A program made the translations under genes and the position numbers. A DNA stretch of 57,329 bases, taken from positions 1 through 57,329 of the forward strand of contig JAHQYM010000004.1 in the NCBI GenBank assembly GCA_024421095.1, written 5' to 3'. Position 1 is the stretch's first letter. Each line of letters starts with the position of its first letter. Below the pieces are notes generated by a model. It saw only the letters and a program-made list of their open reading frames with translations, had not been told where the DNA came from and searched no databases. Source of the stretch: Acidimicrobiia bacterium. GTDB taxonomy: Bacteria; Actinomycetota; Acidimicrobiia; Acidimicrobiales; Aldehydirespiratoraceae. Positions 10,376 through 56,043 of the stretch are shown one piece after another.

Positions 10376-10753
10376 ATGGCATTCACTATCTATCATAACC
10401 CGCATTGAAACTCTTCAAGCAATGCTGTAGCGGTCGCTACGCAAATGGGTGTCGAGTTCACAGAAGTCCGCTACATGAAAGACTTCCCAGATGAGGCCAC
10501 GCTCCACGAGATCATCAACAAACTTGAAGAACCAGTTGAAGACCTAGTTCGCAAAGACGCTCAGTTCGCCAAACTCGGCCTCAACGAGGAAGACTACGTG
10601 AACAACCCCGACGCTGTGGTGGCAACACTAAGCAAGTACCATAGGTTGCTGCAACGGCCGGTTATTGTGGGGACTCGCAAGGCGATAATCGGGCGACCAT
10701 TCAACGGCGTGCTGGGCAAGAAACGGATTTCTCAAATTTTGGGTAGCGATTAG
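10376..10753 (+). CDS. ArsC/Spx-family reductase, predicted selenoprotein (TGA 10406-10408 = Sec11)
   Basis: AAGGA RBS, then ATG 10376 gives MAFTIYHNPH-TGA-NSSSNAV... in frame with ORF 10445-10753. TGA aligns with the catalytic Cys of the ArsC YHNPxC motif. LVRK, LLQRP and IGRP are conserved. Confidence 0.85.
10423..10443 (+). promoter_or_regulatory. Bacterial SECIS hairpin
   Basis: TGC-(T bulge)-GTAGC-GGTC loop-GCTAC-GCA starting 14 nt after the UGA. Bulged U and GGUC loop as in the E. coli fdhF SECIS. Confidence 0.75.
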
Positions 10754-10777
10754 GCACCGAGTCGCTATGCTGTCGGC

Positions 10778-11407
10778 GTGATACTAGAACAACAACTCAG
10801 TCAAAACCAAAAGAGACGCCGTGACCGTGTATTGCGCGCGGCACTAGACCTAGCCGACACCGGCGGATACCACGGGGTGCAAATGCGTGATGTCGCCAAT
10901 CGTGCTGGAGTGGCGTTGGGCACCGTATACAACTATTTTGTGTCGAAAGATCATCTGCTAGCAGTAACGCTAGTTGAGTGGACACGAGAGCTAGCCCAGA
11001 GCGTAAAGCAAAATCCGGCCGAGGGCGATACCACTCTAGAAAAAGTGCTAGATCTGCTCCGCAGAATGACCTTCACCACGCAAAGCAATCAACGAATCGC
11101 CGCCGCCATTGTTGGTGGGTTGATAGCAGAAGGCGAACAGGTCGCGGCGTGCCACCAAGAAATTCATGAAACCTTTACCAACGTTCTGGAGACGGCTTTT
11201 GAACCCGGCTTCGACACCACCAATCGTGACCAGATCATTCGCACACTGCAGAACGTTTGGTTTTCTCAATTGATTTTTTGGAAAAATGGCTGGTTCCCGA
11301 TTGAGCGATGCGTGCAAGAGTTAGAAGACACCGCGAAAATGTTCCTCGCTGACGAACAGCCGGCGAGCGCCTCTGCGGTTACCGCCTCTGCACGTGTCGG
11401 ATGGTAA
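10778..11407 (+). CDS. TetR family regulator, KstR-like
   Basis: GGYHGVQMRDVANRAGVALGTVYNYFVSKDHLL. Leaderless: TATGCT 6 nt upstream of the GTG. Confidence 0.88.
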   Translation: MILEQQLSQNQKRRRDRVLRAALDLADTGGYHGVQMRDVANRAGVALGTVYNYFVSKDHLLAVTLVEWTRELAQSVKQNPAEGDTTLEKVLDLLRRMTFTTQSNQRIAAAIVGGLIAEGEQVAACHQEIHETFTNVLETAFEPGFDTTNRDQIIRTLQNVWFSQLIFWKNGWFPIERCVQELEDTAKMFLADEQPASASAVTASARVGW

Positions 11408-11621
11408 GGTACTCCAAACTCACACAGTACTAGGCCCAAGTAGGGCCAACGCTACTTCGCGGCACCAAAGCAAGTGTCGTGCAACTGTTGATAAAGGGCG
11501 CTTTCGTAAGTGTCAAGCAACGCCAAGTCGCAAAAGAGTGGATCGAAAACAATCGGGTACTAGTTGACCGTTGGTTGCAAGTGGCCCGGGGCTGACGGTT
11601 TATTTGGATTTAGGTTAGCGT

Positions 11622-13184
11622 GTGGAGTTTTTTGCTCCACGCTCTAAACTGATAGCTGTGAACAATGAACTAGGCGTGAACGAATCGGTTGCGGTCGATG
11701 CGGCCGAAGACCCTTCAAAAACGCCCGCATCAACCCCATTTGCGCCCGCAGAGCCTCCACCACCACCTCCGCTGCCGCCGCAACAGACAACGGATGTCTT
11801 CGAGCAAGCGTTGCCGCAAAATCCGCCAGTATCACCCTTTGAACGGGCTGGGTCACCCTTTGAACCGGCTGGGTCACCCTTTGAACCGGCTGCACAAGGC
11901 AGGTTGTTTCAAGCACCCCCAACCGTGTCGGCACCGGTCCCTTCGTCGCCAGTTCTCTCGGCACCTGCCCCTCCGCCTCCCCCGCCTCCACCACCACCGC
12001 TCACGTCGATGTCAGCGGCAGCGAGTCTCGGTCAACAGCGGAACCGCGGCTCCAAACCTTTCAGGATTGTGGCATCGGTGGTATTAGCGATTTTATTGTT
12101 GGGCGGGTCTTTTGTAGTGGGTCAAAATTGGTCTGCAAATAATCCAGTGGTGCCCGCTCAAAATGATGGCATTGAGGCTTTAGTACCTTCAACCGGCACG
12201 GACTTGGATGCCCCAATCAACGCCAACGCCGACACCCCAACAGTTGAGTCCATTCTTGAGGTGCAACCTGGGCCGTTAGCCAACAGCAATTCCAACGAAC
12301 CAGTAGCCGATGTTGCCGAAGCCCTCAGCCCCTCGATCGTAGTCATAGAAATAACTGACGTAAGTCAAGGTTCGGGTGTGGTTTGGGATGCCGAGAATGG
12401 TTACATCGTCACCAACAACCATGTCGTTGAGGGGGCCTCCACCGTAAGCGTTCGCTTTGCTGACGGTCAAGTGGTAACCGGCACTGTCATTGGTGGCGAT
12501 ACAAGCCGCGACATCGCCATCGTTGGGGTTGACCCAACCGAAGTCAACTCTTTGGTCCAAGCGGTTTTCGCACCGGCTTCTGAAGTGCGCGTAGGTCAGT
12601 TGGCGGTGGCTATTGGTGGCCCTTTCGGGTTGGAACAAAGCGTTACCGCCGGCGTGGTAAGCGCCATCAACCGTGTGTTATTGGGAGGTGGATCAGACCC
12701 AGCAAACCCTAACCCCGTGGAGATGATCCAGACTGATGCTCCGATCAATCCCGGTAACTCAGGTGGTGCCTTGGCCGACAGGCAAGGCCGCATAATTGGG
12801 ATCAACACACAGATCCAAACCACTAGTCTGGCGCGCGGTAGCGTGGGTGTGGGTTTCGCGATTCCTTCAGACACGATTGAGTTGATCGCAAGACGTATTG
12901 TCAGTGGCGAATCCTTAGATGTTGGCTACTTAGGGATACAAGGTGAGACACCCACTGATGGTTCACCGGGTGCTTTAGTGACCTCGGTAGTGGCCGGTTC
13001 GCCCGCCGAAATTAGTGGGCTGCAAATCGGCGATCTAATAATTGCGATCAACGGCAAAGAACTCGCTTCAATGGCCGACTTGGCGGCTGAGGTGAAGCTG
13101 TTCCGGCCAACTGAGGTGATAGATGTTTTGGTGTTGCGTGACGGTGTAAGGTTGACGCTGCGAGCGATCCTTGGTTCCGCTTAA
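11622..13184 (+). CDS. HtrA/DegP-like serine protease with PDZ domain
   Basis: Pro-rich N-terminus with SPFEPAG repeats, a TM helix, TNNHVV, DIA, QTDAPINPGNSGG and a C-terminal PDZ. Confidence 0.92.
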   Translation: MEFFAPRSKLIAVNNELGVNESVAVDAAEDPSKTPASTPFAPAEPPPPPPLPPQQTTDVFEQALPQNPPVSPFERAGSPFEPAGSPFEPAAQGRLFQAPPTVSAPVPSSPVLSAPAPPPPPPPPPPLTSMSAAASLGQQRNRGSKPFRIVASVVLAILLLGGSFVVGQNWSANNPVVPAQNDGIEALVPSTGTDLDAPINANADTPTVESILEVQPGPLANSNSNEPVADVAEALSPSIVVIEITDVSQGSGVVWDAENGYIVTNNHVVEGASTVSVRFADGQVVTGTVIGGDTSRDIAIVGVDPTEVNSLVQAVFAPASEVRVGQLAVAIGGPFGLEQSVTAGVVSAINRVLLGGGSDPANPNPVEMIQTDAPINPGNSGGALADRQGRIIGINTQIQTTSLARGSVGVGFAIPSDTIELIARRIVSGESLDVGYLGIQGETPTDGSPGALVTSVVAGSPAEISGLQIGDLIIAINGKELASMADLAAEVKLFRPTEVIDVLVLRDGVRLTLRAILGSA

Positions 13185-13257
13185 CCTCAACGCACACACG
13201 CGCACACGCAAAGCACGCAAGTTTAGACCATGAAAGATTAGGTAGGGTCCATCGGCC

Positions 13258-14331
13258 ATGTTCCTCACGATCATTATCGCTATCGCTGCGCTGATCATTA
13301 TCGGTTTCTCAGCGTATTTTATTGTTCAGGCGCGCCGTATTGAACGCGGCGAAGAGTTGCAACTTGAAGAGTCTGGCAGCACCACAACACCCGAACCAGC
13401 AGTTGCCGCACCCTCGTTCAGGGATCGCCTCGGAAAGACTCGCGCCGCACTTTCGGGCTATCTTGGCTCAGTTTTCGGACGTGGTGATATCAACGATGAG
13501 ACTTGGCAACACTTACAAGACGCATTGATTCGTGCGGATGTGGGCGTGGGCACATCCGCTGACATCGTGGCCACAGTCCGCAGCAAAGCTGCTGCCGATG
13601 GCGTAACCGACAAGACAGAATTGGCTGGCTTGGTGAAAACCGAAATCGTCTCACGCCTCAAAGGTTTCGACCGTTCGATGAGCACCGCGCGAGAAGATTC
13701 TGCCACCGAGAACGGCAAAACCAAGCCAGCCGTTTGGCTGTTCGTGGGAGTGAACGGAGTTGGCAAAACCACCACAATAGGAAAGTTGGCGCACCGAGAA
13801 GCGAGTGCTGGGCGTTCAGTGGTGCTGGCCGCTGGCGACACCTTTAGGGCCGCTGCTGTGGAACAGTTGTCGGTTTGGTCTGAACGCAGTGGGGTAGAGA
13901 TTGTTAAAGGGTCTAGCGGAGCTGATCCTTCGTCGGTTGTTTTCGACGCGGTGGAGCATGCCGCGGCGCGTGCTGTGCCATTAGTGATGGCCGACACCGC
14001 AGGCCGTCTCCAAACCAAGACCAACTTGATGGAAGAATTGCGCAAGGTGCGCCGGGTTGCCGAAAAAGGTGCCGGGACGGTTACCGAAACGCTGCTAGTG
14101 ATTGATGCCACAACCGGGCAAAATGCGCTGTCGCAAGCGCGGCAGTTCGGTGAAGCGGTAGACGTGAGTGGTGTGGTGTTAACCAAGTTGGACGGTTCCG
14201 CTAAGGGCGGGATCGTGATTGCGATTCACGCCGAGTTGGGGGTGCCGGTAAAGTTCGTCGGCCTCGGGGAAGGGATCACTGATTTGGTTGAATTCGACCC
14301 GCACGAGTTCGTTGCCGCGCTCTTTGAATAA
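13258..14331 (+). CDS. ftsY: SRP receptor FtsY
   Basis: GVNGVGKTTT, DTFRAAA, DTAGR and TKLDGSAKGG. Confidence 0.96.
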   Translation: MFLTIIIAIAALIIIGFSAYFIVQARRIERGEELQLEESGSTTTPEPAVAAPSFRDRLGKTRAALSGYLGSVFGRGDINDETWQHLQDALIRADVGVGTSADIVATVRSKAAADGVTDKTELAGLVKTEIVSRLKGFDRSMSTAREDSATENGKTKPAVWLFVGVNGVGKTTTIGKLAHREASAGRSVVLAAGDTFRAAAVEQLSVWSERSGVEIVKGSSGADPSSVVFDAVEHAAARAVPLVMADTAGRLQTKTNLMEELRKVRRVAEKGAGTVTETLLVIDATTGQNALSQARQFGEAVDVSGVVLTKLDGSAKGGIVIAIHAELGVPVKFVGLGEGITDLVEFDPHEFVAALFE

Positions 14332-14408
14332 CTCAAACTTGAGCGTTGCCGTAACCAAGCGGCTAGCTCAGACGCACGCAAAGGCAGATCACCGCTAGGC
14401 TAGAAGTC

Positions 14409-15875
14409 ATGTTTGAAACCCTTTCAGACCGTTTTGAGCGGATCTTTCAAGGCATTCGTGGACGAGGCAAACTAAACCAAGCCGACATTGATGCCACGCT
14501 AGCTGAGATTCGATTGGCGCTGCTTGAAGCGGATGTCAACTTGGATGTGGTTGAATCGCTGACTCAGCGTATCCGCAACCGTGCCCTCGGTCAGGAGCTT
14601 TCTAAGGCTCTCAACCCCAGCCAACAAGTCGTCAAAATAGTGCTTGATGAGTTGACTGTGAGCCTCGGCGGGGAAGCGATGAAACTCACTTACGCGTCGA
14701 AACCTCCAACCGTGGTGTTGTTAGCGGGTTTGCAAGGCTCTGGCAAGACCACCAACGCAGCCAAACTAGCACAATGGTTCAAAAAGCAGGGGCGGCATCC
14801 CTTACTTGTTGGTGCAGACCTACAAAGACCGGCAGCAGTTGAACAGCTACGCACCTTGGGTGAACAGATCGACGTGCCGGTCTTTTCTGAAACCAGTCGA
14901 CCGACTAAGGTCGCTAAAAAGGCCCTCAAAGAAGCCGCCCGCACTGCCCGTGACGTGGTGATTGTCGACACTGCCGGTCGGCTCGCCATAGACCAAACGT
15001 TGATGGCCGAGATTGCCAACATTTCTTCGGCGGTCAACCCCCACTACACACTTTTGGTTGTGGACGCCATGACCGGTCAAGATGCCGTGACCATGGCCCG
15101 AGCCTTCGACCAAACCCTTGCCCTAGACGGCGTGATCTTAACCAAACTCGACGGCGATGCACGTGGCGGTGCGGCGCTGTCGGTCAAAGAAGTAGTAGGC
15201 AAACCGATTGCGTTTGCCTCAACCGGTGAAAAAATTGAAGATTTCGACACCTTCTACCCAGACCGTTTAGCAAGCCGCATTCTCGGAATGGGAGATGTCG
15301 AAACACTGATCGAGAAAGCTGAGGAAGCGTTCGAGCAGGAGCAAGCCGAAAAAGCGGCGGAACGCTTGCTTGAAGGCACCTTCACGCTCGAAGATTTTCT
15401 GGAACAAATGCAGCAGATAAAGAAAATGGGCCCCTTAGGAAATTTGGTGGGGATGATGCCGGGGCTCCCCAAAGAAGCCCGAAACGCTGAATTGGATGAC
15501 AGCCATCTGGCGCGGGTTGAGGGGATCATTCGCTCCATGACACCAGCAGAACGAGCGCAACCCGATGTCATCAACGGTTCTAGGCGGTTACGTATTGCCA
15601 ACGGTTCAGGTGTGCAACCCACCGAAGTCAAGCAACTTCTTGACCAATTTTCGCAGATGCGTCAGATGATGAAACAGTTCTCCGGTATGGGTTCAAAAAA
15701 GTTCAACCCGAAAGCCCGAAGTAAGGGCAAGAAAGGTAAGCAACGGCGAGGCGGACGCGTAACCCACAACGACTCGGCGCGAAGCACGGCAAGCAACCCG
15801 GCGAAGGGCTCTGCTAAACCACCGAAAGTACCATTGGCTCTACCCGGGCTCGAAGACCGTTTGCGCGGGTTTTAG
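14409..15875 (+). CDS. ffh: Signal recognition particle protein
   Basis: GLQGSGKTT, DTAGR, TKLDGDARGG and an M domain. Confidence 0.97.
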   Translation: MFETLSDRFERIFQGIRGRGKLNQADIDATLAEIRLALLEADVNLDVVESLTQRIRNRALGQELSKALNPSQQVVKIVLDELTVSLGGEAMKLTYASKPPTVVLLAGLQGSGKTTNAAKLAQWFKKQGRHPLLVGADLQRPAAVEQLRTLGEQIDVPVFSETSRPTKVAKKALKEAARTARDVVIVDTAGRLAIDQTLMAEIANISSAVNPHYTLLVVDAMTGQDAVTMARAFDQTLALDGVILTKLDGDARGGAALSVKEVVGKPIAFASTGEKIEDFDTFYPDRLASRILGMGDVETLIEKAEEAFEQEQAEKAAERLLEGTFTLEDFLEQMQQIKKMGPLGNLVGMMPGLPKEARNAELDDSHLARVEGIIRSMTPAERAQPDVINGSRRLRIANGSGVQPTEVKQLLDQFSQMRQMMKQFSGMGSKKFNPKARSKGKKGKQRRGGRVTHNDSARSTASNPAKGSAKPPKVPLALPGLEDRLRGF

Positions 15876-15992
15876 CGTTATGGGAAACATTTTGGGTAGG
15901 GTAGTTGGCTTATGAGGTTGGAATTGGTTGGTCCGCTAGGATTGAATTGAGCATTCAGTCCCTAAATCATCATTTACAGAAACAGAGAATAT

Positions 15993-16304
15993 ATGGCAGT
16001 CAAGCTCCGCCTTATGCGGATGGGTAAAAAAAAGCAGCCCACTTACCGAGTTGTAGCGGCCGATTCGCGCTCTCCCCGCGATGGTCGCTTCCTAGAGATT
16101 CTCGGCACGTATGAACCGCGCCAAGATCCTTCGCGGATCAAGATCAACAACGACCGCGCCTTGCATTGGCTGAGGCACGGCGCACAACCAACCGACCGAG
16201 TTGAGAAGCTCCTTAAGCTCTCGGGCGCGTGGGAACTATTCAAGGACAAACCGCCTAGTTCCGACACCGCAGTAGCAGCCACCGAAGCTGAAGTAGGTGT
16301 TTGA
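15993..16304 (+). CDS. rpsP: 30S ribosomal protein S16
   Basis: [31 protein letters not shown]. Confidence 0.97.
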
Positions 16305-16305
16305 G

Positions 16306-16551
16306 ATGTCGTTGGATAAGGCTCAAGCAGTTTGTGAATATCTGGTGCAACAGTTGGTTGACGACCCAACAGCTGTAGGCGTTGCGGCCACGCAGACGGG
16401 ATCGAAGTTACGCCTTGATGTGACTGTTGGTGAGGGCGACATGGGCCGGGTGATCGGTAGACGCGGGCGTGTGGCCGGGGCTATTCGTACGGTAGTGCGC
16501 GCTGCTGGCTACGAAGAAGGCACCTCCATTGAGGTTGAGTTCATCGACTGA
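16306..16551 (+). CDS. khpA: KH-domain RNA-binding protein
   Basis: DMGRVIGRRGRVAGAIR, located between rpsP and rimM. Confidence 0.9.
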   Translation: MSLDKAQAVCEYLVQQLVDDPTAVGVAATQTGSKLRLDVTVGEGDMGRVIGRRGRVAGAIRTVVRAAGYEEGTSIEVEFID

Positions 16552-16578
16552 CCCTGCGGCACCGCGCCAGGTATATTG

Positions 16579-17091
16579 ATGCTTGAAGTCGGCCGTGTCA
16601 CCCGCCCGCATGGCGTATGCGGCGATCTGGTAGTGATTTTGACTACCAACCGCAGCGAGCGTTTAGATGTTGGGTCGGTGTTGACGGCCGCAGATCGTGA
16701 GTTGGTGGTGGCTCACGCGAGGCCACACAAAAACTCTTGGATTGTCGGGTTTCGTGGTGTGACCGATCGCCTTAGTGCTGAGGCGCTGAGCGGCACGGTT
16801 CTTCGTGCTGTGCCGCTTGTGGATGCTAATGAATTATGGGTGCATGAGTTGGTAGGCGCGCGGGTGCTAGACCAAGACGGGGTCGAACGTGGTGAGGTGG
16901 CAAAGGTAGTGGAAAATCCGGCCAGTGATCTTTTGGAGTTAGACACCGGCGCGCTGGTGCCGTTGCGCTTCCTTACCGAACTAGTACCCACAAAGCGCAT
17001 CGTTGTTGATGTGCCTGAAGGTTTGTTTGATATTGCGAACAACCCAACCGAAAGTGCTGTCGGTGCTGCTGATTCTGGAATGCCTTCGTGA
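16579..17091 (+). CDS. rimM: Ribosome maturation factor RimM
   Basis: VGRVTRPHGVCG, ENPASDLLEL and operon context. Confidence 0.92.
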   Translation: MLEVGRVTRPHGVCGDLVVILTTNRSERLDVGSVLTAADRELVVAHARPHKNSWIVGFRGVTDRLSAEALSGTVLRAVPLVDANELWVHELVGARVLDQDGVERGEVAKVVENPASDLLELDTGALVPLRFLTELVPTKRIVVDVPEGLFDIANNPTESAVGAADSGMPS

Positions 17092-17813
17092 GTTGTTTGC
17101 GCATTGATGTCTTCACCATTTTCGCGCAACTAGTTGATTCGTTTGCTAGTGAGTCGGTGATTGGTCGGGGGCGTCGTGAGGGGGTGCTTGATTTGCGGGC
17201 TTTCGGTCGCGGGGTTCACCAAAGTGTTGATGACGCTCCGTTTGGTGGTGGAGCGGGGATGGTCATGGCTGCGCCGCCAGTGTTTGCTGCGGTAGAGAAA
17301 CATGAACCCCCTCGTCCGTTGCTGTATTTGTCTCCGGCTGGCAAAATTTTCGATCAACGTATGGCTGAACAGTTAGCAGCGAGCGGTGGCTTTTCGTTGT
17401 TATGTGGACGCTACGAAGGCATTGATGAGCGCATTCGTGAGCATTTGGTTGATGCTGAGGTGTCGGTTGGTGATGTGGTGCTTGCTGGTGGCGAAGTTGC
17501 GGCCTTGTTGATAGTGGAAGCTGTGGGTCGTTTAGTGCCGGGTGTTGTGGGTAACGCCGACAGCATCACCGAGGAATCCTTTACGGATCATTTGTTGGAG
17601 TATCCTCATTTTACTCGCCCAGCCGTTTTTCGCGGTTGGCAAGTGCCGCGAGTGTTGCTCTCGGGTGACCACGGCCAGGTGGCTCGTTGGCGCAAGGCGC
17701 AAGCGTTACGGCAGACGCTTAATCGCCGCCCCGACTTGATCGCAAGACGCGGAGGTCTTAGCGACCAAGACAAGAATCTGCTCGCAGAATTTGGATATCT
17801 TGACGAGTTTTAG
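17088..17813 (+). CDS. trmD: tRNA (guanine-N1)-methyltransferase
   Basis: VDDAPFGGGAGMV, CGRYEGIDER, SVGDVVLAGGE and LLEYPHFTRP. Confidence 0.95.
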   Translation: MSCLRIDVFTIFAQLVDSFASESVIGRGRREGVLDLRAFGRGVHQSVDDAPFGGGAGMVMAAPPVFAAVEKHEPPRPLLYLSPAGKIFDQRMAEQLAASGGFSLLCGRYEGIDERIREHLVDAEVSVGDVVLAGGEVAALLIVEAVGRLVPGVVGNADSITEESFTDHLLEYPHFTRPAVFRGWQVPRVLLSGDHGQVARWRKAQALRQTLNRRPDLIARRGGLSDQDKNLLAEFGYLDEF

Positions 17814-17901
17814 GGTGGTGGTTGGTTGAGTTGCCTCTAGGCTTGCTGTCTGGTACGGCTGTTCGGTCCGTCCTTTAGTTCTCACCGCCGCGGAGTATGC
17901 G

Positions 17902-18249
17902 ATGCAGCCCACAGATGTAATTGACAACCTAATCGATAATGCAGAAATACCGGATTTTGCTTCTGGGGATACGCTGCGTGTTCATGTTCGTGTGATGGAG
18001 GGCAATCGTGCCCGTACGCAGGTCTTTGAGGGTGTGGTGATACGCCGTCAGGGTAGCGGTATCCGTGAGACGTATACTGTGCGAAAGTTGAGTTTTGGTG
18101 TTGGTGTGGAGCGCACATTTCCTCTTTACACACCGATTGTGGAGCGCATTGAGCGGGTGTCTCGTGGTGATGTGCGTCGAGCTAAATTGTATTACCTGCG
18201 CGAGCGCGTTGGTAAAGCTGCCAAGGTAAAAGAAAAGCGAGACAACTAG
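17902..18249 (+). CDS. rplS: 50S ribosomal protein L19
   Basis: [20 protein letters not shown] and RRAKLYYLR. Confidence 0.97.
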
Positions 18250-18278
18250 CCGCTCTAAGCTGGTGTCGTTCAAGGCAT

Positions 18279-18300
18279 TGTCACACCCCCTGATTACTCT
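18279..18300 (+). promoter_or_regulatory. PafBC/RecA-NDp-like promoter for yraN, leaderless
   Basis: TGTCAC-accccctgat-TACTCT-6 nt-ATG. Confidence 0.65.
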
Positions 18301-18306
18301 TGAGGG

Positions 18307-18660: not shown

Positions 18661-18685
18661 CCCGTAGCTGTCTGCCGTTTGCTTT

Positions 18686-18796: not shown

Positions 18797-18866
18797 GTTG
18801 CTAATTTGGCCTTTACGCTTTGCTGTGTCAGTTTGATCTTGATGTGGACGGTCGTTTGGAGTTGAT

Positions 18867-23600: not shown

Positions 23601-23602
23601 GT

Positions 23603-30936: not shown

Positions 30937-31209
30937 TTAGCTGGACGCTTGTCTGGAGTGGGTGACGCTACCGATGAATTCTTCGAAGCTGTGCAACACC
31001 TCTTCGGGATTGGCGTGGCATCCTGTTTTGTCTTTAGAGTAGATCACTTTGTCGTTGACGGTCACGTCAAAGACCCCGTTGGATCCGGTTGTGAGGTTTA
31101 ACCGCTCAATGATGTGTTGATGGTTGGAGAGTAGGTCTTGGGCTGCGCTCACGGCGTGGCTCAGGTAGTTTCAAGGAACGCAATAGGTGATGTCAATTTG
31201 GTATTTCAT
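30937..31209 (-). CDS. SelW/Rdx-family protein, predicted selenoprotein (TGA 31171-31173 = Sec13, CxxU)
   Basis: ATG 31209, 7 nt after TAGCCT, gives MKYQIDITYCVP-TGA-NYLSHAVSAAQDLL..., in frame with ORF 30937-31152. Rdx motif GSNGVFDVTVND..IYSK. Confidence 0.88.
31141..31164 (-). promoter_or_regulatory. Candidate SECIS hairpin (weak)
   Basis: CUG-A-GC-CAC-GCC-GUG-A-GC-G-CAG can fold shortly after the UGA. The alternative apex CGC-CGUGA-GCG is also possible. Confidence 0.4.
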
Positions 31210-31311
31210 GCGAAGCAGGCTAGCAGCTTTTTCGATTCTTGTGTCTTTCTTGGTTGCGTCGGTTCTAGGCTTGCTGAAGCAGTTTTATCCACCAATTTGG
31301 GAGCACATCAA

Positions 31312-31812
31312 ATGGCTGAGATCACGTTTCACGGCACAACCATAAACACTAGTGGTTCGTTACCGGCGGTTGGCAGCGAAGCGCCACCGTTGGTGCTTAC
31401 GGGCAAAGATGGTGGCTCGATTTCGTTAGCGGATTTCGCTGGTCAACGCCTTGTCTTGAACATCTTCCCTTCTGTAGACACCCCCACTTGCGCCATGAGT
31501 GTTCGTACTTTCAACGAGCGTGCGGCGAGCCTTGAAAACGCCACGGTACTTTGTGTTTCTGCCGACCTGCCCATGGCCCAGAACCGCTTTTGCGGCGCCG
31601 AAGCCATTGAGCGTGTGCAGACTGGTTCCACTTTCAGGAATCCTCAAGTGTTAGACGATTACGGGGTGCGTATTGTGGATGGCCCTCTTGAAGGTCTTGC
31701 GGCTCGTGCGGTGGTGGTGCTTGACGAGACTGTAACTGTGTTGCATGCTGAACTTGTTGGTGAGTTGGCTGACCAGCCAGACTACGAAGCCGCGCTTAGC
31801 GTTTTGCAGTAA
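31312..31812 (+). CDS. tpx: Thiol peroxidase (Tpx peroxiredoxin)
   Basis: LNIFPSVDTPTC, SADLPMAQNRFCGAE and EPDY-like QPDY. GGAG precedes ATG 31312. Confidence 0.93.
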   Translation: MAEITFHGTTINTSGSLPAVGSEAPPLVLTGKDGGSISLADFAGQRLVLNIFPSVDTPTCAMSVRTFNERAASLENATVLCVSADLPMAQNRFCGAEAIERVQTGSTFRNPQVLDDYGVRIVDGPLEGLAARAVVVLDETVTVLHAELVGELADQPDYEAALSVLQ

Positions 31813-41823: not shown

Positions 41824-41826
41824 ACT

Positions 41827-47485: not shown

Positions 47486-47511
47486 GCCTTTGTATCGGCT
47501 GAGCGCCGATT

Positions 47512-47979: not shown

Positions 47980-48019
47980 AGAGTTTATATCGGCGTGTCC
48001 ATCGCTACTCTATTTAGAT

Positions 48020-49159
48020 ATGACCCTCACCGAAGCCCAGATACTCGAGGCATTGCGTCCAGTAGAAGATCCCGAACTCCACCGCAGCATCGTTGATTTA
48101 GGAATGGTGCGTTCCACCACAATCGACGGTGGCCAGGTGCAAGTTGGGATTGATCTCACCATCTCGGGTTGCCCCTTGCGAAACGAAATTCACAGACGAG
48201 TAACCGAAGCGGTCAGCGCGCTTGACGGGGTAAGAGTGGTGACCATCGACTTTGGTGTGATGAGCGACACGCAGAGAGCGCAAGTGCGCCAAATGCTCCA
48301 CGGCGACCCGGCGGCCACCGCCGGTTCGCAGCCAACACACGGCCACTCGCAAGGACGGGCGATCCCTTTTGCTCAACCGGGCAACCGTACGCGCGCCCTG
48401 CTTATCGCTTCAGGCAAAGGTGGTGTGGGCAAATCATCGGTGACCGCCAATCTTGGTATTGCTCTAGCGCAGCGTGGTCATAGCGTGGCTGTGGTTGACG
48501 CTGATGTCTGGGGCTTCTCCATACCGCGGATGCTTGGCGTGCAGCAAGCCCCGACAGTAATTGACGAGATGATTATTCCGCCCACCACGCATGGTGTGCG
48601 CTGCGTGTCTATGGGCTTTTTTGCACGCGAGGACCAACCAGTCATTTGGCGTGGTCCGATGCTGCACAAAGCCCTTGAGCAGTTCCTTACAGATGTTTTC
48701 TGGGATGACCCCGACTATTTGTTGGTTGACCTTCCCCCGGGTACGGGCGACATTTCTTTGTCTTTAGCCCAGTTCCTGCCGAGGTCGGAAGCCTATGTCG
48801 TCACCACTCCGAACCCGGCTGCCCAGAGGGTCGCACAGCGCAGCGCGTTTATGTTTGAACAAGTCAAGATTCAGGTTAAAGCTGTGATAGAAAATATGTC
48901 TTGGTTCACAGGAGATGATGGCAAACGTTATTTGTTGTTCGGTTCGGGGGGAGGTGCTGAACTAGCGAAGCGTCTCAATGTCGATCTTATCGGCCAGATT
49001 CCAATGACCATAGGGTTGCGTGAAGGCTCCGACCATGGGCAGCCAATCACCGCGGTCGACCCGCAAAGTCCACCAGCGGTGGTATTCGCGGAGATGGCAG
49101 AGTGGATCGAAATTCACAAACCGTCAAAGCGCACACACGCGGAACTAGTAATCAATTGA
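48020..49159 (+). CDS. mrp: Mrp/ApbC Fe-S cluster carrier ATPase
   Basis: DPEL..SIVDLG, SGKGGVGKSS, WRGPM, DLPPGTGD and ENMS. Confidence 0.93.
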   Translation: MTLTEAQILEALRPVEDPELHRSIVDLGMVRSTTIDGGQVQVGIDLTISGCPLRNEIHRRVTEAVSALDGVRVVTIDFGVMSDTQRAQVRQMLHGDPAATAGSQPTHGHSQGRAIPFAQPGNRTRALLIASGKGGVGKSSVTANLGIALAQRGHSVAVVDADVWGFSIPRMLGVQQAPTVIDEMIIPPTTHGVRCVSMGFFAREDQPVIWRGPMLHKALEQFLTDVFWDDPDYLLVDLPPGTGDISLSLAQFLPRSEAYVVTTPNPAAQRVAQRSAFMFEQVKIQVKAVIENMSWFTGDDGKRYLLFGSGGGAELAKRLNVDLIGQIPMTIGLREGSDHGQPITAVDPQSPPAVVFAEMAEWIEIHKPSKRTHAELVIN

Positions 49160-49193
49160 TCGCTCAACAGGCTCACACAACGGAGGTGCAACT

Positions 49194-49421
49194 GTGTATA
49201 TTCGTATTGGGGTAACCAACCACGCACACGAGATTTTGGTGCAACTACCCGACAACACCGACCGGCGCTCGGTCAAGGATTCGGTAGACAAGTCGATCGG
49301 CAGCAACACTGCCACGCTCTGGTTGACCGATGCCAAAGGCAAAGAGGTAGCCGTGCTAGGTTCCAATATTGCCTTTGTAGAGCTAGGCCCCGATGCCGGT
49401 AACCCGATCGGTTTCGGTTAG
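49194..49421 (+). CDS. DUF3107 family protein
   Basis: IRIGV....EI, LWLTDAKG and IAFVELG. Confidence 0.8.
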   Translation: MYIRIGVTNHAHEILVQLPDNTDRRSVKDSVDKSIGSNTATLWLTDAKGKEVAVLGSNIAFVELGPDAGNPIGFG

Positions 49422-49435
49422 TTCTTGGGGCCAAC

Positions 49436-49486
49436 CCAAGATGACCCGAGTGCCAAGATGATCCAAGTGCCAAGATGACCCAAGTG
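49436..49486 (+). repeat. 3 x 17-bp tandem repeat spanning the GDPD start codon
   Basis: CCAAGATGAYCCRAGTG-like unit at 49436, 49453 and 49470. Confidence 0.85.
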
Positions 49487-50167
49487 ATCGCACATCGAGG
49501 CGCATCTCAAGCAGCGCAAGAGAACACCTTGATAGCGTTTCGTTTGGCGCAAGAGATGGGTGCAGATTGGGTCGAACTAGACGCTCGTCGTGCTGCCGAT
49601 GGAGTGGTTGTGGTTCATCACGATGCCCATTTACCCGACGGACGGATTTTGGCCGACGTATCTAGCGAAGAGCTGCCCGACTACATACCTAGCCTGGCTG
49701 AAGCGCTTGAAGTCTGCGAATCCATGAACGTCAACATTGAGATCAAGAACCTTCCGAGCGACCCCGACTACGACCAAGACCATTTGGTGGTATACGCAGT
49801 TGCGGGTCTAGTACAAGCCTATCTAGGCGTAGAAAGGGCGTTGATAACCTCTTTCAACATTGACGCGGTGCAGCGGATCCGTTCAGTTGACCCATCGCTA
49901 CGCTGCGGTTGGGTGCTCTATGAAATGACCGATCCGGCCAGCGCAATTGGCCGAGCGCTGGCCCACGAAATGGACACCATCCACCCTTGGGACGTGCTAG
50001 TCGACAGCAACTTCGTGAAACGCGCCCATCAAGCGGGACTGCAAGTCTACGTCTGGGCTGTTGATCAAAGAGAGCGGATCGCGGAACTCACCAAAATGGG
50101 AGTTGACGGCATCTGCACTAACGTTCCCGACCTGGCCAGAAAAGTAATCGACGAACTTGGCGCTTAG
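49475..50167 (+). CDS. Glycerophosphodiester phosphodiesterase
   Basis: IAHRGAS, ENT, ELD, HHD, NIEIK and GVDGICTN.PD. Confidence 0.92.
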   Translation: MTQVIAHRGASQAAQENTLIAFRLAQEMGADWVELDARRAADGVVVVHHDAHLPDGRILADVSSEELPDYIPSLAEALEVCESMNVNIEIKNLPSDPDYDQDHLVVYAVAGLVQAYLGVERALITSFNIDAVQRIRSVDPSLRCGWVLYEMTDPASAIGRALAHEMDTIHPWDVLVDSNFVKRAHQAGLQVYVWAVDQRERIAELTKMGVDGICTNVPDLARKVIDELGA

Positions 50168-51084
50168 GGTGGGTCGGGCATTAGCAAGGCGAGCCTCTCG
50201 GGTGTCCAAGTGAAACGCAGACTTTTGCTAGTGCCGAGATAGTCGCCGTCAACTTGGTACGGGGCCGGAGGATCGGCTTCGACGAGAAAGGAGCGCTGGC
50301 CGGTGCACAGATCAACTTGTTTTTTTGGGGTTAGGTCTTTACCCCGCAAGGCGCTTGCCATCACCCCGGCAAGACTTGCCAATTTCAGGTCTTTGAGAGT
50401 GACCAGCGCGAGTGGGTCTTTGAGCGATAGGCCGCCCACAAGGTCAATAGGGCGACTACCGAGGTAGGTGTACGGGTTGGTGTTCATCGCAACCGCTAGC
50501 GAACCCTCAGTGAGGAGATTGCCGTGCATATCAAGAACTCTGAGCGAGGGTTTGTTCCGCTCGACCCTGCGCAACCAGGTATCAAACGCGGCCCACACAA
50601 ACAACGGATGACCCGCCCATCGCTTCCAAGTGCCACGATTCTCGACTTGCTCAACCACCGCCGCATCAAAGCCGACACCGCAATGAAAAAGAAAATAGCG
50701 GCCCTCTACTGCACCTAAACCAATGCGAAAAATCGAACCTCGGTCAATAGCATCCAAGAGTACCAAAGCGGCATCAACAGGATCGTCAGGTAGACCTAGA
50801 ATACGCGCCAACACATTGGTGGAGCCCCCCGGAAGTGTAGCCAAGGCAGTTTCGGTTCCAGCGAGACCGTTCGCTGCCTCGTTCACGGTTCCGTCACCAC
50901 CCAACACAACCACAAGGTCGAAGTTGTTGTTCGCTGCCGACAACGCTAAGCGGGTTGCGTGCCCGGAACGGGTGGTTTCGGCCAAGGTCACTTCGTGGTC
51001 GGCCGAGAGTATTTTTTGCGTGATGACACGCCGCCGTGCTGTTACCGACGATGCAACCGAGTTGACGATAAATAAAATCCGCAA
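50164..51084 (-). CDS. Diacylglycerol kinase-family lipid kinase
   Basis: GGDGTVNE, LPGGSTN, GVGFDA and QVDGD. Start could be TTG 51084 or ATG 51120. Confidence 0.88.
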   Translation of the reverse strand: MRILFIVNSVASSVTARRRVITQKILSADHEVTLAETTRSGHATRLALSAANNNFDLVVVLGGDGTVNEAANGLAGTETALATLPGGSTNVLARILGLPDDPVDAALVLLDAIDRGSIFRIGLGAVEGRYFLFHCGVGFDAAVVEQVENRGTWKRWAGHPLFVWAAFDTWLRRVERNKPSLRVLDMHGNLLTEGSLAVAMNTNPYTYLGSRPIDLVGGLSLKDPLALVTLKDLKLASLAGVMASALRGKDLTPKKQVDLCTGQRSFLVEADPPAPYQVDGDYLGTSKSLRFTWTPERLALLMPDPP

Positions 51085-51150
51085 GAATATCAAAACTATC
51101 TGCTCAAAGTAGATAGGCATTCGTCAACTTTGCTGGCAAACTCTCCGCCT

Positions 51151-51930
51151 ATGAAAATTGTTGTCTGTGTAAAACAAATCCCTGACCCGGCCGACCCTGG
51201 TGCTCTCGACCCAGAAAGCAAAACTTTGGTGCGTGACCAGAAACTCATCTTGGACGAATCCGACAGCTACGGAGTTGAGATGGCTTTGCAACTTGCCGAT
51301 GCCAACGGTGAAGGTTCGGTGCATCTAGTGTCCATGGCCCCCGACAACCAAATTGCTGGACTGCGCACCGCCCTAGCGATGGGTGCCGATAGCGCAACTT
51401 TGGTAAGCGACGAAGCCCTGAAAGGTAGCGATGCGTTGAGCACGGCAAGGGTTCTTGCCGCGGCGATAGCGCGCAGCGAACCCGATTTGGTGTTAGCGGC
51501 GACCGAATCGAGCGACGGTTACACCGGTACCGTACCCGAAATGATGGCCGAGTTTTTGGAGTTACCGTCGGTGACTTTCGCCAAAGCCGTAACCGTGGAC
51601 GGCAACGTCGCCAAAGTAAAACGCCAAACCGAAGCCGGCTACGACGACGTGCATTGCCCGTTGCCAGCCGTGGTTTCGGTAACCGCGGGTGTGGTCGAAC
51701 CGCGTTACCCGTCTTTCAAAGGAATCATGTCTGCCAAATCGAAGCCACTCGACCAGCTTGGCGTTTCCGACCTCGGTATTGAACCCGGTTCGGTTGGTTG
51801 GGCGGGTGGAAACCAAGAAATCGTTAGAATCGCCGATGCTCCCTCACGCGCTGCTGGCGAAGTATTCGAAGACGAGGGAGATGCCCATGAACGCATCGTG
51901 GCCTTCCTTGAAGACCTCAAAGTATTGTGA
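51151..51930 (+). CDS. etfB: Electron transfer flavoprotein beta subunit
   Basis: MKIVVCVKQIPD, ALAMGAD and EPRYPS. Confidence 0.94.
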   Translation: MKIVVCVKQIPDPADPGALDPESKTLVRDQKLILDESDSYGVEMALQLADANGEGSVHLVSMAPDNQIAGLRTALAMGADSATLVSDEALKGSDALSTARVLAAAIARSEPDLVLAATESSDGYTGTVPEMMAEFLELPSVTFAKAVTVDGNVAKVKRQTEAGYDDVHCPLPAVVSVTAGVVEPRYPSFKGIMSAKSKPLDQLGVSDLGIEPGSVGWAGGNQEIVRIADAPSRAAGEVFEDEGDAHERIVAFLEDLKVL

Positions 51931-51942
51931 AGAGGAGACAAA

Positions 51943-52911
51943 ATGGGGCTTGACAAGATCTGGGTCTTTGCTGAAACCGACGGTGCTGCCGTAGCCACGA
52001 TCTCTCTTGAAATGTTGGCGAAAGCCCGAGAAATAGCCGGCACGGTCGAAGTTTTCATGGGTTGCGATGGTGAGGATTACGCCACCGAACTTGGTGACCA
52101 CGGTGCTGAGGCGGTCTATTGCACTGGCGACCTTGACGGTGCCTTGCAAGGCGTGTCGGTTGCTTCGGCTGTTGCCAACGCAATCCAGCGGGGTGATGTT
52201 GACGCACCAGACGCGTTTATGCTTGGCACCACCCAAAATGGTCGTGATGTTGCGGCACGGCTTTCAGTGAAACTCCAGTCGCCGGTGATAACCAACATCG
52301 TCGACTTAGTACTAGATGGCGATGACCTCCTCGGTAGTGAACCCATTTTTGGTGGGACAACCGATGTGATGACCAAAAACATCTCCGACAATCCAGGAAT
52401 CTTCTTGGTGCGGCCCAAGTCGTTTACGGCGCAAGCAGTTGGTGCTGCCGAGGCTATGCTAGAAGACCTTGAAGTTGGTGACCTCGGAGCTGTGGGAGCA
52501 GCGCGGATTATCGACACTTTCGCCGAGGAATCCCAAGGGCCCAAACTTGATGAGGCCAACATAGTTGTGTCTGGAGGGCGCGGACTCGGAGCCAAAGAGG
52601 CTTATGCGATGATTGAAGAGTTGGCCGGGTCTTTGGGCGCAGCTCCGGGTGCTAGTCGAGCGATTGTTGATGCCGGTTGGGTTCCGTACAGTTATCAGGT
52701 TGGTCAAACCGGCAAGGTGGTGAAGCCAACAGTTTATATCGCCTGCGGGATCTCTGGTGCTACCCAGCATTTAGTTGGCATGAAAGGTTCAAAGCACATC
52801 ATCGCCATTAATTCAGATTCGGAAGCTCCGATTTTTGCGGTTGCGGATCTGGGTATTGTCGGTGATGTCCACAAGGTTGTCCCCAAGCTGATTGAAACCC
52901 TGAGCGACTAA
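51943..52911 (+). CDS. etfA: Electron transfer flavoprotein alpha subunit
   Basis: VVSGGRG, GASRA, QVGQTGK and GISGATQH. Confidence 0.95.
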
Positions 52912-53018
52912 AGGAGCGCTCCGTTTGGCAAATTGCGCGATTGAGCCGAAACCACTGTAAACCAGAAATGCACAGGTTTGTCCACACCTGTTGAATAACC
53001 CCAGATGGTGTTTGGTGA

Positions 53019-53768
53019 TCAGATTAGAGGCCAAGGCCAGCGATGTCCGCTACTGTCTTCTTTCGGGAAGGTTCCGCTCTGGGCTAAGGCTTTGGTTCTG
53101 GTCAGCATGGCATCCTGTTCAAGTGGGTTTAGCAGGTCGGCTACCGCCGAGGAGACGCCTCGGTCAGCGAAACTCTGCAAGTCGGCGCGCAATTTTTCTG
53201 GTAAGGGCTCTGAGGCGAAGTCCCACAATACTGTGCGGAGTTTGAACTGATGGTGAAAAGCGACTCCGTGATCGATTGCCCAGATGCGCCCGTCGGTGCC
53301 CAAGATGCAATGCCCAGACTTGCGATCGGTATTGTTGATTACGAGGTCGAAAGCGCAAATTTGTCGGAAGGTGCTGTCGTGGTTTTCGTCGGTCTGGTAC
53401 AACGTGAAGTAATGCTCAGAGAAGTAGTGCGGCATAAAGAGTTGTATCGCACCGGTTTCCAACGGCGCATCCTCACGAACCACGGTTGGTGGTACGATGT
53501 CCCACCCCAGTTCTTGAGCCACATGAAAGGCTGCGACCTCGCGGCGATAAAGACCGCTGGGGAAGTCCCAAAGCGGGCGTTCTCCCTTGCGTGGTTTGTA
53601 GATGCCTTGGGCTTTGAGGCCCGCGTCTGAGATGTTGACCAAGAAAGTGGCGTTCGAAGAATACGGCATGCGACCCACGAGTTCTAACTCGCCGTCTGCT
53701 AGCAGGGTTAGCGCCCGAGGCACCCCTATCGGTTCGCGTGCAAAGAAGGGAGACTCGCTTTCGCTCAT
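53019..53768 (-). CDS. SCO1664-family kinase-like protein
   Basis: SNATF, YKP..GERPLWDFP, REVAA, NNTDRKSGH and IDHG. Confidence 0.88.
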   Translation of the reverse strand: MSESESPFFAREPIGVPRALTLLADGELELVGRMPYSSNATFLVNISDAGLKAQGIYKPRKGERPLWDFPSGLYRREVAAFHVAQELGWDIVPPTVVREDAPLETGAIQLFMPHYFSEHYFTLYQTDENHDSTFRQICAFDLVINNTDRKSGHCILGTDGRIWAIDHGVAFHHQFKLRTVLWDFASEPLPEKLRADLQSFADRGVSSAVADLLNPLEQDAMLTRTKALAQSGTFPKEDSSGHRWPWPLI

Positions 53769-53799
53769 GTCAAGTTGCGTTTAACGTTGTCTGGGTTGT

Positions 53800-54309
53800 T
53801 CAGTTTTGGCACGCACACCAACCACCATTGCGACTCTCGAGTGGTTGGCCGCAATAAAGGCACGGAGGCCGCCCTGCCGCCACGATCGTTCGGGCACGCC
53901 CAATGAGCCCAACAACATCTTCACGTTCAAGAAAGAAACGCGCTTGGAAAGGTTCCTCGTCTTCGTCGTCAACAAAGGACTCCGCCACCACCACGAGTTG
54001 GTCGAGTTCTTGGGTGTAGGCGATGGCTAGGCTAGCAACCGTCCATTGTGCGATCACCGGTTCTCTGAGTTCGAGATCTTTGGGTGGGGTTGCGGCTTCG
54101 GATTCATGTGCCAACCCGCTTTGTTTCGGCAGTTCGTTGAGCACTCGGTCTAGGTACTCGGCAAGTGCAGCTACTTGCTGTTTTTCTACTTTGAGCGACA
54201 CCAACTGACCTTCGCTGCGGGCTTGAAGAAAGAACTCGCGTTGACCTTTGGGCCCAAGCGTGCCCACGGTGAGAAAGTCAGGTTCACGAAAATCGAAAGA
54301 TTGGCTCAT
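53800..54309 (-). CDS. DUF3090 family protein
   Basis: GPKGQREFFLQ, EKQQV and AGRPPC..CG.P. Confidence 0.88.
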   Translation of the reverse strand: MSQSFDFREPDFLTVGTLGPKGQREFFLQARSEGQLVSLKVEKQQVAALAEYLDRVLNELPKQSGLAHESEAATPPKDLELREPVIAQWTVASLAIAYTQELDQLVVVAESFVDDEDEEPFQARFFLEREDVVGLIGRARTIVAAGRPPCLYCGQPLESRNGGWCACQN

Positions 54310-54953
54310 GACGGTATTAGGCAGTTTAGTTCGTCGCCAACGGAGTTAACGGTTAATACGGTTGGCCCTTGCGAATTGTAAAGGATTGCCGATATCGAAC
54401 ACGGAGAAATAACCATACGTTGGAACAAATCGAGGGGCGTACCAGCGGCTGCGGCCACAATTGCTTTGATGACATCGGCGTGTGAAACGGCCACGATTGT
54501 TGCCCCCGTATGACGCTCTACAAGGCTGTCTACAGTGGCAACGGCGCGGTGCTGCATTTCGGTGAAAGACTCCCCTTGCGGGAAACGAAACCCGCTTGGA
54601 TAACGCTGCACTGTGTCCCAGGCCGGTTCTTTGCGCAGTTCTGCAAGCTTTTTGCCGGTCCAAGCGCCGAAGTCGCATTCGATTAACCCGGCTGATTGTT
54701 GCACATCAAGTTTGCGCGCCGTTGCGATTGGTTCGGCGGTTTGCAGCGTTCTCTCCATGGGTGAGGCGTAGATGGCTGCAACCGACTTGAGTGTTGAGAT
54801 GCGTTGAGCGGCTGCTTCGGCTTGGGCGATGCCTATGGAACTCAGGTGCAATCCGGCTGCTCTGCCTGGCAGTGTTTCCCCAGTGGTTGGTGTTTGCCCA
54901 TGGCGCACAAAAAGAACCAGCGTGGGGGTAGGGGCGCTTGCGGGTCTGGCCAT
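54306..54953 (-). CDS. MSMEG_4193-family phosphomutase (histidine phosphatase)
   Basis: VRHGQT, SPMERT, ECDFGAW, FPQGES and SHADVIK. Triad with DUF3090 and SCO1664. Confidence 0.88.
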   Translation of the reverse strand: MARPASAPTPTLVLFVRHGQTPTTGETLPGRAAGLHLSSIGIAQAEAAAQRISTLKSVAAIYASPMERTLQTAEPIATARKLDVQQSAGLIECDFGAWTGKKLAELRKEPAWDTVQRYPSGFRFPQGESFTEMQHRAVATVDSLVERHTGATIVAVSHADVIKAIVAAAAGTPLDLFQRMVISPCSISAILYNSQGPTVLTVNSVGDELNCLIPS

Positions 54954-55021
54954 GATTGTCTCTAAGCTATCTGGAGTTGCGGTGTCACCAAAGTGCTCTT
55001 TCCCCGCTAACCTCTCAACGG

Positions 55022-55402
55022 ATGAAGATGCACAACGAATCTCGTTTTGGTGAGCCATGTCGTTTTGCTCGGCCACGCCCTTGGGCTATCGTCGTTTTGG
55101 TTCTATTGGCGTTACTAGCTTCTAGTTGCGGTTCTAGCAACAACCCCACATCTTGGGCGGATGCAATGGAGCAACGCACGCTCGAAGAAAACTTTATGCG
55201 TTCTTGCCAGGAGGCCAATGTTGGTGGCGAATTGGATTTGGAGCAGGCTGCACAATACTGCACCTGCGCCTTTCAACTCTTAGTTGACCGCTATGAGAAC
55301 GATTTCGACGGTTTCAAAGAGGCCGAGAGTCGCTTGCGGAGTGACCCCAACGATATTGATGCTTCGCTACGCGGAGCATTCTTGGATTGCGCCACGCAAT
55401 AA
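55022..55402 (+). CDS. Small Cys-containing lipoprotein
   Basis: Lipobox ASSC, NFMRSC and YCTC. Start uncertain. Confidence 0.65.
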   Translation: MKMHNESRFGEPCRFARPRPWAIVVLVLLALLASSCGSSNNPTSWADAMEQRTLEENFMRSCQEANVGGELDLEQAAQYCTCAFQLLVDRYENDFDGFKEAESRLRSDPNDIDASLRGAFLDCATQ

Positions 55403-55428
55403 CTACGCTCACGCGAACTGCCCAGTCG

Positions 55429-56043
55429 CTATGGTCGGTTACCGAATTCGGGGTGTTCGGTGCGGGTGCGTTTCAGTTCCCAAAAACCGTCAACATCCAT
55501 CATGGTCACAAGCGCATCCCACATGGCTAGTGAATCTTCTGTGGGCGGGACTCGGGTGATGACCGGCCCAAAGTATCCCTGTTTTTCTCCTCGGCGGTTA
55601 TTGAAGGCAATGATCGGTGTGCCGACATCATCTCCGCAAAGCTCCAAACCTGCTTGGTGGCGTTTTTCGATTTCAGCATCGTAGGTTTCGCTGTGGTAGG
55701 CGCTGGCGTGTGTGGGGTTAAGCCCGATGTTGTCGAGAGCTTCGGTTAAGTTGAAGTCTAGTTCTTGGTCGTGGTGGATGCGTCTGCCGTATTCCCAATA
55801 AAGATCGAACACCGCAGCTTCGCCTTCGCTGGCACGTACCGCCTCCATAACCCGCAACAGACGGTATGTCCTCTTGGTTGGCTCGTAGAACCGCGAATCC
55901 GGGTCTGGTTGGTTTTTGAGCAACAAGCTGATCGGTTGCCAAATGATGTTGAGTTGGCGTGCTGGCTTGATTTCGTCAACGACCCAACGGGCCGTCACCC
56001 AACACCAAGGTCAAAGTGGGTCTACCCAAAACTCTATTTCCAT
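55429..56043 (-). CDS. Rv2466c/DsbA-like (mycoredoxin-2-type) oxidoreductase, predicted selenoprotein (TGA 56011-56013 = Sec11, UxxC)
   Basis: GGAG RBS, then ATG 56043 gives MEIEFWVDPL-TGA-PWCWVTARW, against the family motif DPLCPWCW.TSRW. DVGTP, FGPV and FWELKRTR are also present. Confidence 0.88.
55977..55997 (-). promoter_or_regulatory. Bacterial SECIS-like hairpin
   Basis: UGACGGCCC-GUU-GGGUCGUUG stem-loop starting 13 nt after the UGA, with a G-initiated loop. Confidence 0.6.

Follow-up and report, generated by a model that had tools for sequence, protein, structure and literature searches.

Predicted selenoprotein genes with TGA at the redox-active cysteine position in a sponge-associated Acidimicrobiales genome

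Known selenoproteins and the three window genes

The closest described systems are listed in two selenoprotein catalogues: one includes arsenate reductase (UxxS), DsbA-like form 1 (UxxC) and SELENOW-like proteins as selenoprotein families (PMC13188914), and the other includes ArsC-like, DsbA-like and SelW-like selenoproteins (PMC1794560). Within the class Acidimicrobiia, a 2026 preprint reports selenocysteine (Sec, U) machinery in Actinomarina, which belongs to another order (bioRxiv 10.64898/2026.04.03.716425). Here we describe an ArsC-like, a SelW-like and a DsbA-like gene, each with an in-frame TGA, in a 57,329-nucleotide stretch of DNA (the window) that constitutes contig C207 of a draft genome from the Acidimicrobiales family Aldehydirespiratoraceae (genome G000; 2.72 Mb, 231 contigs, 98% complete). 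The sequencing runs that hold the window DNA carry the label sponge metagenome. Based on the positions of the UGA codons, the machinery encoded in the genome, conservation, RNA covariation and family membership, all of which were observed in this analysis, we conclude that the three genes are very probably genuine bacterial selenoprotein genes in which UGA is decoded as Sec; from the same observations we infer selenium insertion itself, and the substrates and reductants of the three proteins.

The ArsC-family (arsenate-reductase-like) gene occupies positions 10376–10753 on the forward strand and encodes 125 amino acids between an ATG at 10376 and a stop codon at 10751–10753. The TGA, at 10406–10408, is codon 11, in the motif YHNPH-U-NSS. 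The predicted protein matches Pfam ArsC (PF03960) with 37.7 bits, above the cut-off of 24, and when it is aligned with the arsenate reductases of PDB entries 3rdw, 3f0i and 1i9d, its U falls on the Cys of YHNPrCsKS. In the same alignment, the Arg of 'vRkd', of 'qRPviv' and of 'iGRP' each match an Arg in 3rdw and 3f0i, and they may correspond to the catalytic Arg triad of R773 ArsC. The protein resembles known ArsC-like selenoproteins (UxxS; PMC13188914, where they come under TIGR00014, and PMC1794560) in its Pfam family, in having Sec at the catalytic Cys position and in the sequence U-N-S-S. By contrast, the 2006 tables name Deltaproteobacteria for ArsC-like selenoproteins, whereas the host here is a lineage of Acidimicrobiales known from a metagenome-assembled genome (MAG).

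The gene of the SelW/SelT/SelH (Rdx) family lies at 30937–31209 on the reverse strand, encoding 90 amino acids from an ATG at 31209 to a stop codon at 30939–30937. Its TGA, at 31171–31173 (31171 being the low coordinate), is codon 13, in C10-V-P-U13. We observed matches to Pfam Rdx (PF10262; 62.7 bits, cut-off 22.6) and to TIGR02174 (48.1, cut-off 34.2); the Campylobacter-type equivalog NF041051 gave 66.3, below its threshold of 88. In PDB 2fa8 and 3dex, the residue opposite U is the second Cys of CxxC, and C-V-P-U is placed on C-T-Q-C of 2fa8. Hence the protein is like bacterial SelW-like (Rdx) CxxU selenoproteins in its Rdx and TIGR02174 matches, its C-x-x-U motif and its small size, and differs from them in falling below the NF041051 cut-off, in being one of two paralogues in this genome, and in having two relatives that seemingly contain U-x-x-U.

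The third gene, encoding an Rv2466c-like/DsbA-like thiol(selenol) oxidoreductase of 204 amino acids, is found at 55429–56043 on the reverse strand (ATG 56043, stop 55431–55429), with the TGA at 56011–56013 as codon 11, in U11-P-W-C14. The best Pfam match of the protein is the Rv2466c-like family PF22234 (139.7 bits, cut-off 27); DSBA (PF01323) matches with 34.9 bits (cut-off 25.6), and no model matched in a scan against NCBIfam. In PDB 4zil, 4nxi and 5xur (Rv2466c), the position of its U is taken by the first Cys of CPWC, and the similarity to the solved Cys forms, ~146 bits, extends over the whole length. Rv2466c of M. tuberculosis (4nxi, 5xur) has mycothiol/mycoredoxin-dependent reductase activity; the two proteins have (C/U)-P-W-C at the same place, with Sec predicted to replace the first Cys here. 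Like DsbA-like form 1 selenoproteins (UxxC, PF01323; PMC13188914), the window protein belongs to the DsbA-like thioredoxin-fold family and has U-x-x-C; it differs in its best Pfam match, PF22234, and in the FrhB/FdhB-like Fe-S gene that lies 3 nt upstream.

A sequence-only reading of the window had placed these TGAs 10–12 codons past a start, at the redox Cys of each family. All three codons are present on the strands it gave (forward for the ArsC-like gene, reverse for the other two), at distances of 10, 12 and 10 codons, and align with the catalytic Cys of solved homologues. It had given each start a ribosome-binding site or a −10 box; for the ArsC-like and DsbA-like genes AAGGA and GGAG, respectively, are seen by eye ~7 nt before the ATG, and no clear ribosome-binding site is seen for the SelW-like gene. 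As it had also proposed, standard gene calling truncates the genes: translation table 11 leaves 102 amino acids (10445–10753), 71 amino acids (31152–30937) and 189 amino acids (55998–55429) of the ArsC-like, SelW-like and DsbA-like proteins, respectively, with loss of the redox motif in all three cases. The three genes are unlinked, since each has different neighbouring genes.

Sec machinery and further selenoprotein genes in the genome

The check that the sequence-only reading had suggested, for selA, selB, selD and tRNA-Sec (selC), found all four in the genome. selA (387 bits) adjoins selB (300.7 bits) on contig C49, selD (363 bits) itself contains one in-frame TGA, and a single tRNA-Sec scores 67 bits with the Rfam model RF01852 (cut-off 47) and has the anticodon TCA according to ARAGORN. 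These genes bear on the possibility that UGA is generally reassigned, for example to Trp, or is read by a near-cognate tRNA without selenium. UGA-to-Trp reassignment is reported for the same phylum, in the Eggerthellaceae, by a 2026 paper (PMC13462651). However, 621 of 1278 stop-to-stop open reading frames (ORFs) of at least 300 codons end in TGA genome-wide, making TGA the commonest stop of long ORFs and indicating that the code is not reassigned in this genome. In the window, TGA is the ordinary stop of rpsP (16302–16304), khpA (16549–16551) and rimM (17089–17091), as had been noted from the sequence. Moreover, the tRNA-Sec is the sole tRNA with a UCA anticodon among 47 tRNAs, tRNA-Trp has CCA, the aligned residue of homologues is Cys rather than Trp, and the full Sec machinery is encoded. 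We consider reassignment or selenium-free readthrough very unlikely.

With this machinery, SelB carrying Sec-tRNA(Sec) would bind a short bacterial Sec insertion sequence (SECIS) hairpin inside the coding sequence, and this binding would deliver Sec to the ribosome instead of termination. The predicted products are small thiol-type oxidoreductases with Sec in place of the nucleophilic Cys: an ArsC-family reductase with U-x-x-S, a SelW/Rdx protein with C-x-x-U, which would form a selenenylsulfide couple, and an Rv2466c/DsbA-like reductase with U-x-x-C. In this sponge-associated Acidimicrobiales genome, the three would belong to a selenoproteome numbering 10 or more genes.

We found seven further predicted selenoprotein genes outside the window, three of them on contig C208. 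An AhpD-like gene (TIGR01926, CHY-U) lies at C208:7641–8189 on the forward strand. One PrxQ gene and two TlpA-like genes lie at C208:15089–15553 (reverse), C208:47577–48170 (forward) and C213:2689–3822 (reverse); the PrxQ/BCP protein has the Sec motif TPG-U-T, and the two TlpA/ResA-like proteins are lipoproteins with the motif WAPx-U-PTC, one of which has a Thr/Pro-rich linker of ~200 amino acids. An FdhA gene (CNRT-U-HAPS; C15:11172–13259, forward) scores 643.7 against TIGR01591, slightly below the cut-off of 666, and its start codon is uncertain. The remaining genes are selD (GAG-U-GC; C230:14798–15844, reverse) and a second SelW gene (C139:4365–4628, reverse). Each of the 10 genes in the genome has one in-frame TGA inside a single domain. 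Since an organism with at least six selenoprotein genes has been termed selenoprotein-rich in two papers (PMC1794560, PMC5029168), the sequence-only reading was justified in describing the lineage as selenoprotein-rich.

The count of 10 is a lower bound from insensitive scans that covered five thioredoxin-fold families genome-wide, with GPx, rhodanese, OsmC, MoeB, GST, HesB and DsrE among the families left out. We observed eight AhpC-TSA matches, three with TGA; eight Redoxin matches, with TGA in the same three; five Thioredoxin matches, two with TGA, both among the AhpC-TSA three; one CMD match, with TGA; and no Glutaredoxin match. For 10 further motif candidates, searched against Pfam with TGA read as U, a domain spanned the TGA in none. 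A tblastn search for Cys paralogues in the same genome (3244 ORFs against the genome) made no selenoprotein gene stand out; the FdhA site (C15:11541) appeared there as a poor alignment only, and was recognised afterwards from a hairpin scan. A genome scan for coding TGA with a dicodon model was noisy and insensitive, missed the DsbA-like gene, and served as a source of candidates only. At C88:71817–74495 (reverse), a hydantoinase-like ORF that ends in TGA precedes an in-frame flavin-reductase-like ORF with its own ATG eight codons on, a gene junction that mimics a selenoprotein in mechanical scans and of which a fragment lies on C45. Reading of the two sites, with no family search run, led us to reject both, as being either adjacent genes or fragments.

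Conservation of the TGA codons and of the downstream hairpins

For comparison, we searched a sample of 60 family genomes, which represent 11 genera. The DsbA-like orthologue was found in 58 of the 60 genomes, 57 of which have one in-frame TGA and one of which has none; in the other two genomes only Cys paralogues with ~40% identity matched. The ArsC-like orthologue was found in 57 genomes, with TGA in all 57 (one TGA in 53, two in four), and was not found in G025, G029 or G033. SelW-like homologues were found in 41 genomes, all 41 with TGA (one in 39, two in two); none was found in the other 19, which include all 16 genomes sampled from three genera. selD, found in 57 genomes, contains one TGA in every one. 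Among loci that were fetched, the codon aligned with U is TGA in 22 of 23 DsbA-like genes (TGT in the other), 21/21 ArsC-like genes and 20/20 SelW-like genes, while protein identity between orthologues falls to 49–62%. We also found TGA in 39 of the 44 DsbA-like loci on public MAG contigs that cover the codon; these 39 are 46–82% identical, and the record titles among them name Candidatus Aldehydirespiratoraceae, Candidatus Poriferisodalis and Microthrixaceae. The five most distant public DsbA-like loci (31–41% identical) have TGT or TGC. Thus, at least four genes, the three window genes and selD, are conserved across the family as predicted Sec forms.

Sequencing or assembly errors could in principle have made TGA from TGC or TGT, and the genome is a draft of 231 contigs. 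However, dozens of genomes from independent assemblies, some of them single-contig, share the TGA, and three errors that each fall exactly on the catalytic Cys are implausible. In addition, a contig from a sponge-metagenome run that is not flagged as a source of the genome (X5) spans 55940–56143 with no differences, the DsbA-like TGA included. We regard the probability of such errors as negligible.

One relative differs from the others. In G025 (91% complete), alone among the family relatives, the DsbA-like gene (locus L062, C17:17547–18358) encodes Cys, as TGT, and the stem downstream of that codon has four substitutions that leave three pairs unpaired. No selA, selD, ArsC-like or SelW-like gene was found in this 91% complete genome. 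This looks like loss of the Sec trait, with one gene converted to Cys and the hairpin, once released, decaying afterwards, although genome incompleteness is a possible explanation. On that reading, G025 would be a natural Sec-loss control.

A hairpin follows each TGA, as the sequence-only reading had said, and its support rests on comparison across genomes. The ArsC-like hairpin (10425–10442, forward) has a stem of 6–7 bp and the apical loop GGUC (10432–10435); the SelW-like hairpin (31142–31160, reverse) has a seven-position stem and the apical loop CGUGA (31153–31149); and the DsbA-like hairpin (55977–55997, reverse) has a 9 bp stem and the apical loop GUU (55988–55986). The stems start 10–19 nt and the apical loops 17–23 nt downstream of the UGA, and every apical loop contains G. 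In the ArsC-like stem, 97% of cells are paired (alignment A2), with one compensatory pair, GTAGC/GCTAC in the window versus GTGGC/GCCAC in relatives, that is made by two synonymous changes. The SelW-like stem (alignment A1) shows compensatory changes in five of seven pairs, with 85.7% of cells paired as opposed to 10–51% in a control with slid partners, and none of 500 shuffles reached its covariation score. The DsbA-like stem is nearly invariant in 22 Sec forms of the family, synonymous sites included (alignment A3), the sole change being G-U for G-C at one pair of the window's copy. In a wider set of 40 sequences (alignment A4), 97% of cells in this stem are paired and two pairs show compensatory change, one of them being G-C in 25 sequences, A-U in three and C-G in two; the covariation score was again reached by 0/500 shuffles. 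Over all hairpins, slid partners gave 10–71% pairing, versus 86–97% for the real partners. The GGUC loop also follows the TGA in the AhpD-like, SelD, FdhA and one TlpA-like gene, such that a simple scan for TGA, a stem and GGUC finds five of the 10 selenoprotein genes of the genome. GGUC may be a SECIS signature particular to the lineage, on which a covariance model could be built.

The conservation and the hairpins also bear on the possibility that the TGAs are real stops, in which case each locus would consist of a short ORF and, starting downstream of it, a truncated protein without the redox residue, or would be a pseudogene. Downstream ORFs of the lengths given above do exist under table 11, and the folding energies of the single sequences are unremarkable. 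However, the 10–12 codons before each TGA are kept in frame and lie within the Pfam domains (for example FWVDP-U-PWCW), the entire active-site motif would be missing from the truncated products, and the same TGA has been retained in 57/58, 57/57 and 41/41 relatives despite the drift in protein identity. We judge real stops or pseudogenes to be highly improbable.

Several observations weigh against decoding of the three UGA codons as Sec, or limit how far it extends. The single-sequence folding energies of the hairpins are no better than those of shuffles (z = −0.75, −0.51 and −0.78), which is why support for the hairpins rests on the cross-genome comparison, and the window's own SelW-like stem pairs at just five of seven positions. 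By eye, the SelW-like start lacks a clear Shine-Dalgarno sequence. The ArsC-like protein, unlike the known ArsC-like selenoproteins listed under TIGR00014, scores 78.5 against that arsC equivalog model, under the cut-off of 106.05, and 'arsenate reductase' is therefore a family-level label only for this predicted protein. Because the relatives share ancestry, counting across them makes the evidence look more independent than it is. Contigs from RNA libraries that lie over the DsbA-like gene do not prove its transcription. Lastly, the presence of selenium in the proteins is predicted from sequence rather than from experiment.

Sec use in Acidimicrobiia and the neighbourhoods of the window genes

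The three window genes are new members of known selenoprotein families and not a new mechanism, since all of the families are known and, in a sample of Acidimicrobiia, selA exceeds its cut-off in 204 of 301 genomes and in 104 of 151 genera, a count that takes in three unpublished genomes. The same count suggests that Sec use is common across the class. The sequence-only reading was thus correct that ArsC-, SelW- and DsbA-like selenoproteins exist, and its statement that Sec use is sparse in cultured actinobacteria does not extend to the Acidimicrobiia. According to the Actinomarina preprint (10.64898/2026.04.03.716425), that organism is of the same class, has selA, selB, selC and selD with a Sec-containing SelD, and has several selenoproteins hidden from standard gene callers, as does the genome studied here. 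By contrast, Actinomarina belongs to a different order and has 1.1-Mb genomes with ~5 predicted selenoproteins each, versus at least 10 in a 2.7-Mb sponge-associated genome, for which the present analysis gives family assignments and SECIS covariation.

The selenoproteome of this lineage is not described in the literature that we searched: a search that did not cover supplements turned up no paper dealing with selenoproteins in either Aldehydirespiratoraceae or sponge Acidimicrobiia, and 'Acidimicrobi' and 'Actinobacteri' are absent from the main texts of BSepDB (PMC13326102) and deep-Sep (PMC12013277), whose supplements may list such genomes. A 2017 paper reports that most bins of sponge symbionts contain the SelA and SelB COGs together. 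We tentatively raise the possibility, which we hold to be less probable than its negation, that the Acidimicrobiia are a large, overlooked, mostly aerobic clade of heavy selenoprotein users, with core Sec-dependent thiol oxidoreductases fixed in this sponge-associated family, including a Sec Rv2466c-type reductase with an FrhB-like Fe-S/flavin neighbour as a possible dedicated reductant. If so, the ArsC-like, DsbA-like and SelW-like selenoproteins of marine metagenomes whose hosts are unknown would gain a taxonomic home, and there would be a link to the reported SelA/SelB enrichment in sponge symbionts. Because standard annotation truncates selenoprotein genes, and would give the three window genes and the seven others without their active sites, the redox and detoxification capacity of the lineage is under-read. 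A conserved selenoproteome, apparently maintained by selection in an uncultured Acidimicrobiales family from sponge metagenomes, is relevant to selenium ecology, to MAG annotation and to the choice of biochemical candidates, such as the Sec forms of Rv2466c and ArsC.

The DsbA-like gene starts 3 nt past the stop codon of an FrhB/FdhB-like gene (56047–57216, reverse strand, 389 amino acids), which belongs to the F420 hydrogenase/dehydrogenase beta family and encodes 4Fe-4S motifs. This gene is directly upstream of the DsbA-like gene in nine of nine loci from the same genus, and is ~1.4 kb from it in two loci of another genus. The FrhB/FdhB-like protein may be a redox partner of the DsbA-like selenoprotein. 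Contigs from metatranscriptomic libraries (X15 and X16), of a strain 95–99% similar, lie in 55429–56143 and cover most of the DsbA-like gene; the X15 piece starts just 8 nt before the TGA, and the X16 pieces and X6 miss the TGA. The X15 piece also lacks one nucleotide where the window has the ATG (56043), and the start may differ between strains.

On its two sides, the ArsC-like gene has a P-II and a TetR gene. The SelW-like gene adjoins an M50 protease gene and a divergent gene of the Cys-type Redoxin/AhpC-TSA family (31138–31812, forward strand). As listed, with a TTG start at 31138, the Redoxin ORF overlaps the 5' end of the SelW-like gene; the Redoxin domain starts at 31369. In two SelW-like orthologues from the same genus, L053 (genome G053) and L082 (genome G038), the Cys codon of C-x-x-U is likewise a stop codon and the motif reads Y-stop-V-P-stop, with two TGA codons in each; the additional TGA would give a U-x-x-U motif, with one hairpin serving both codons.

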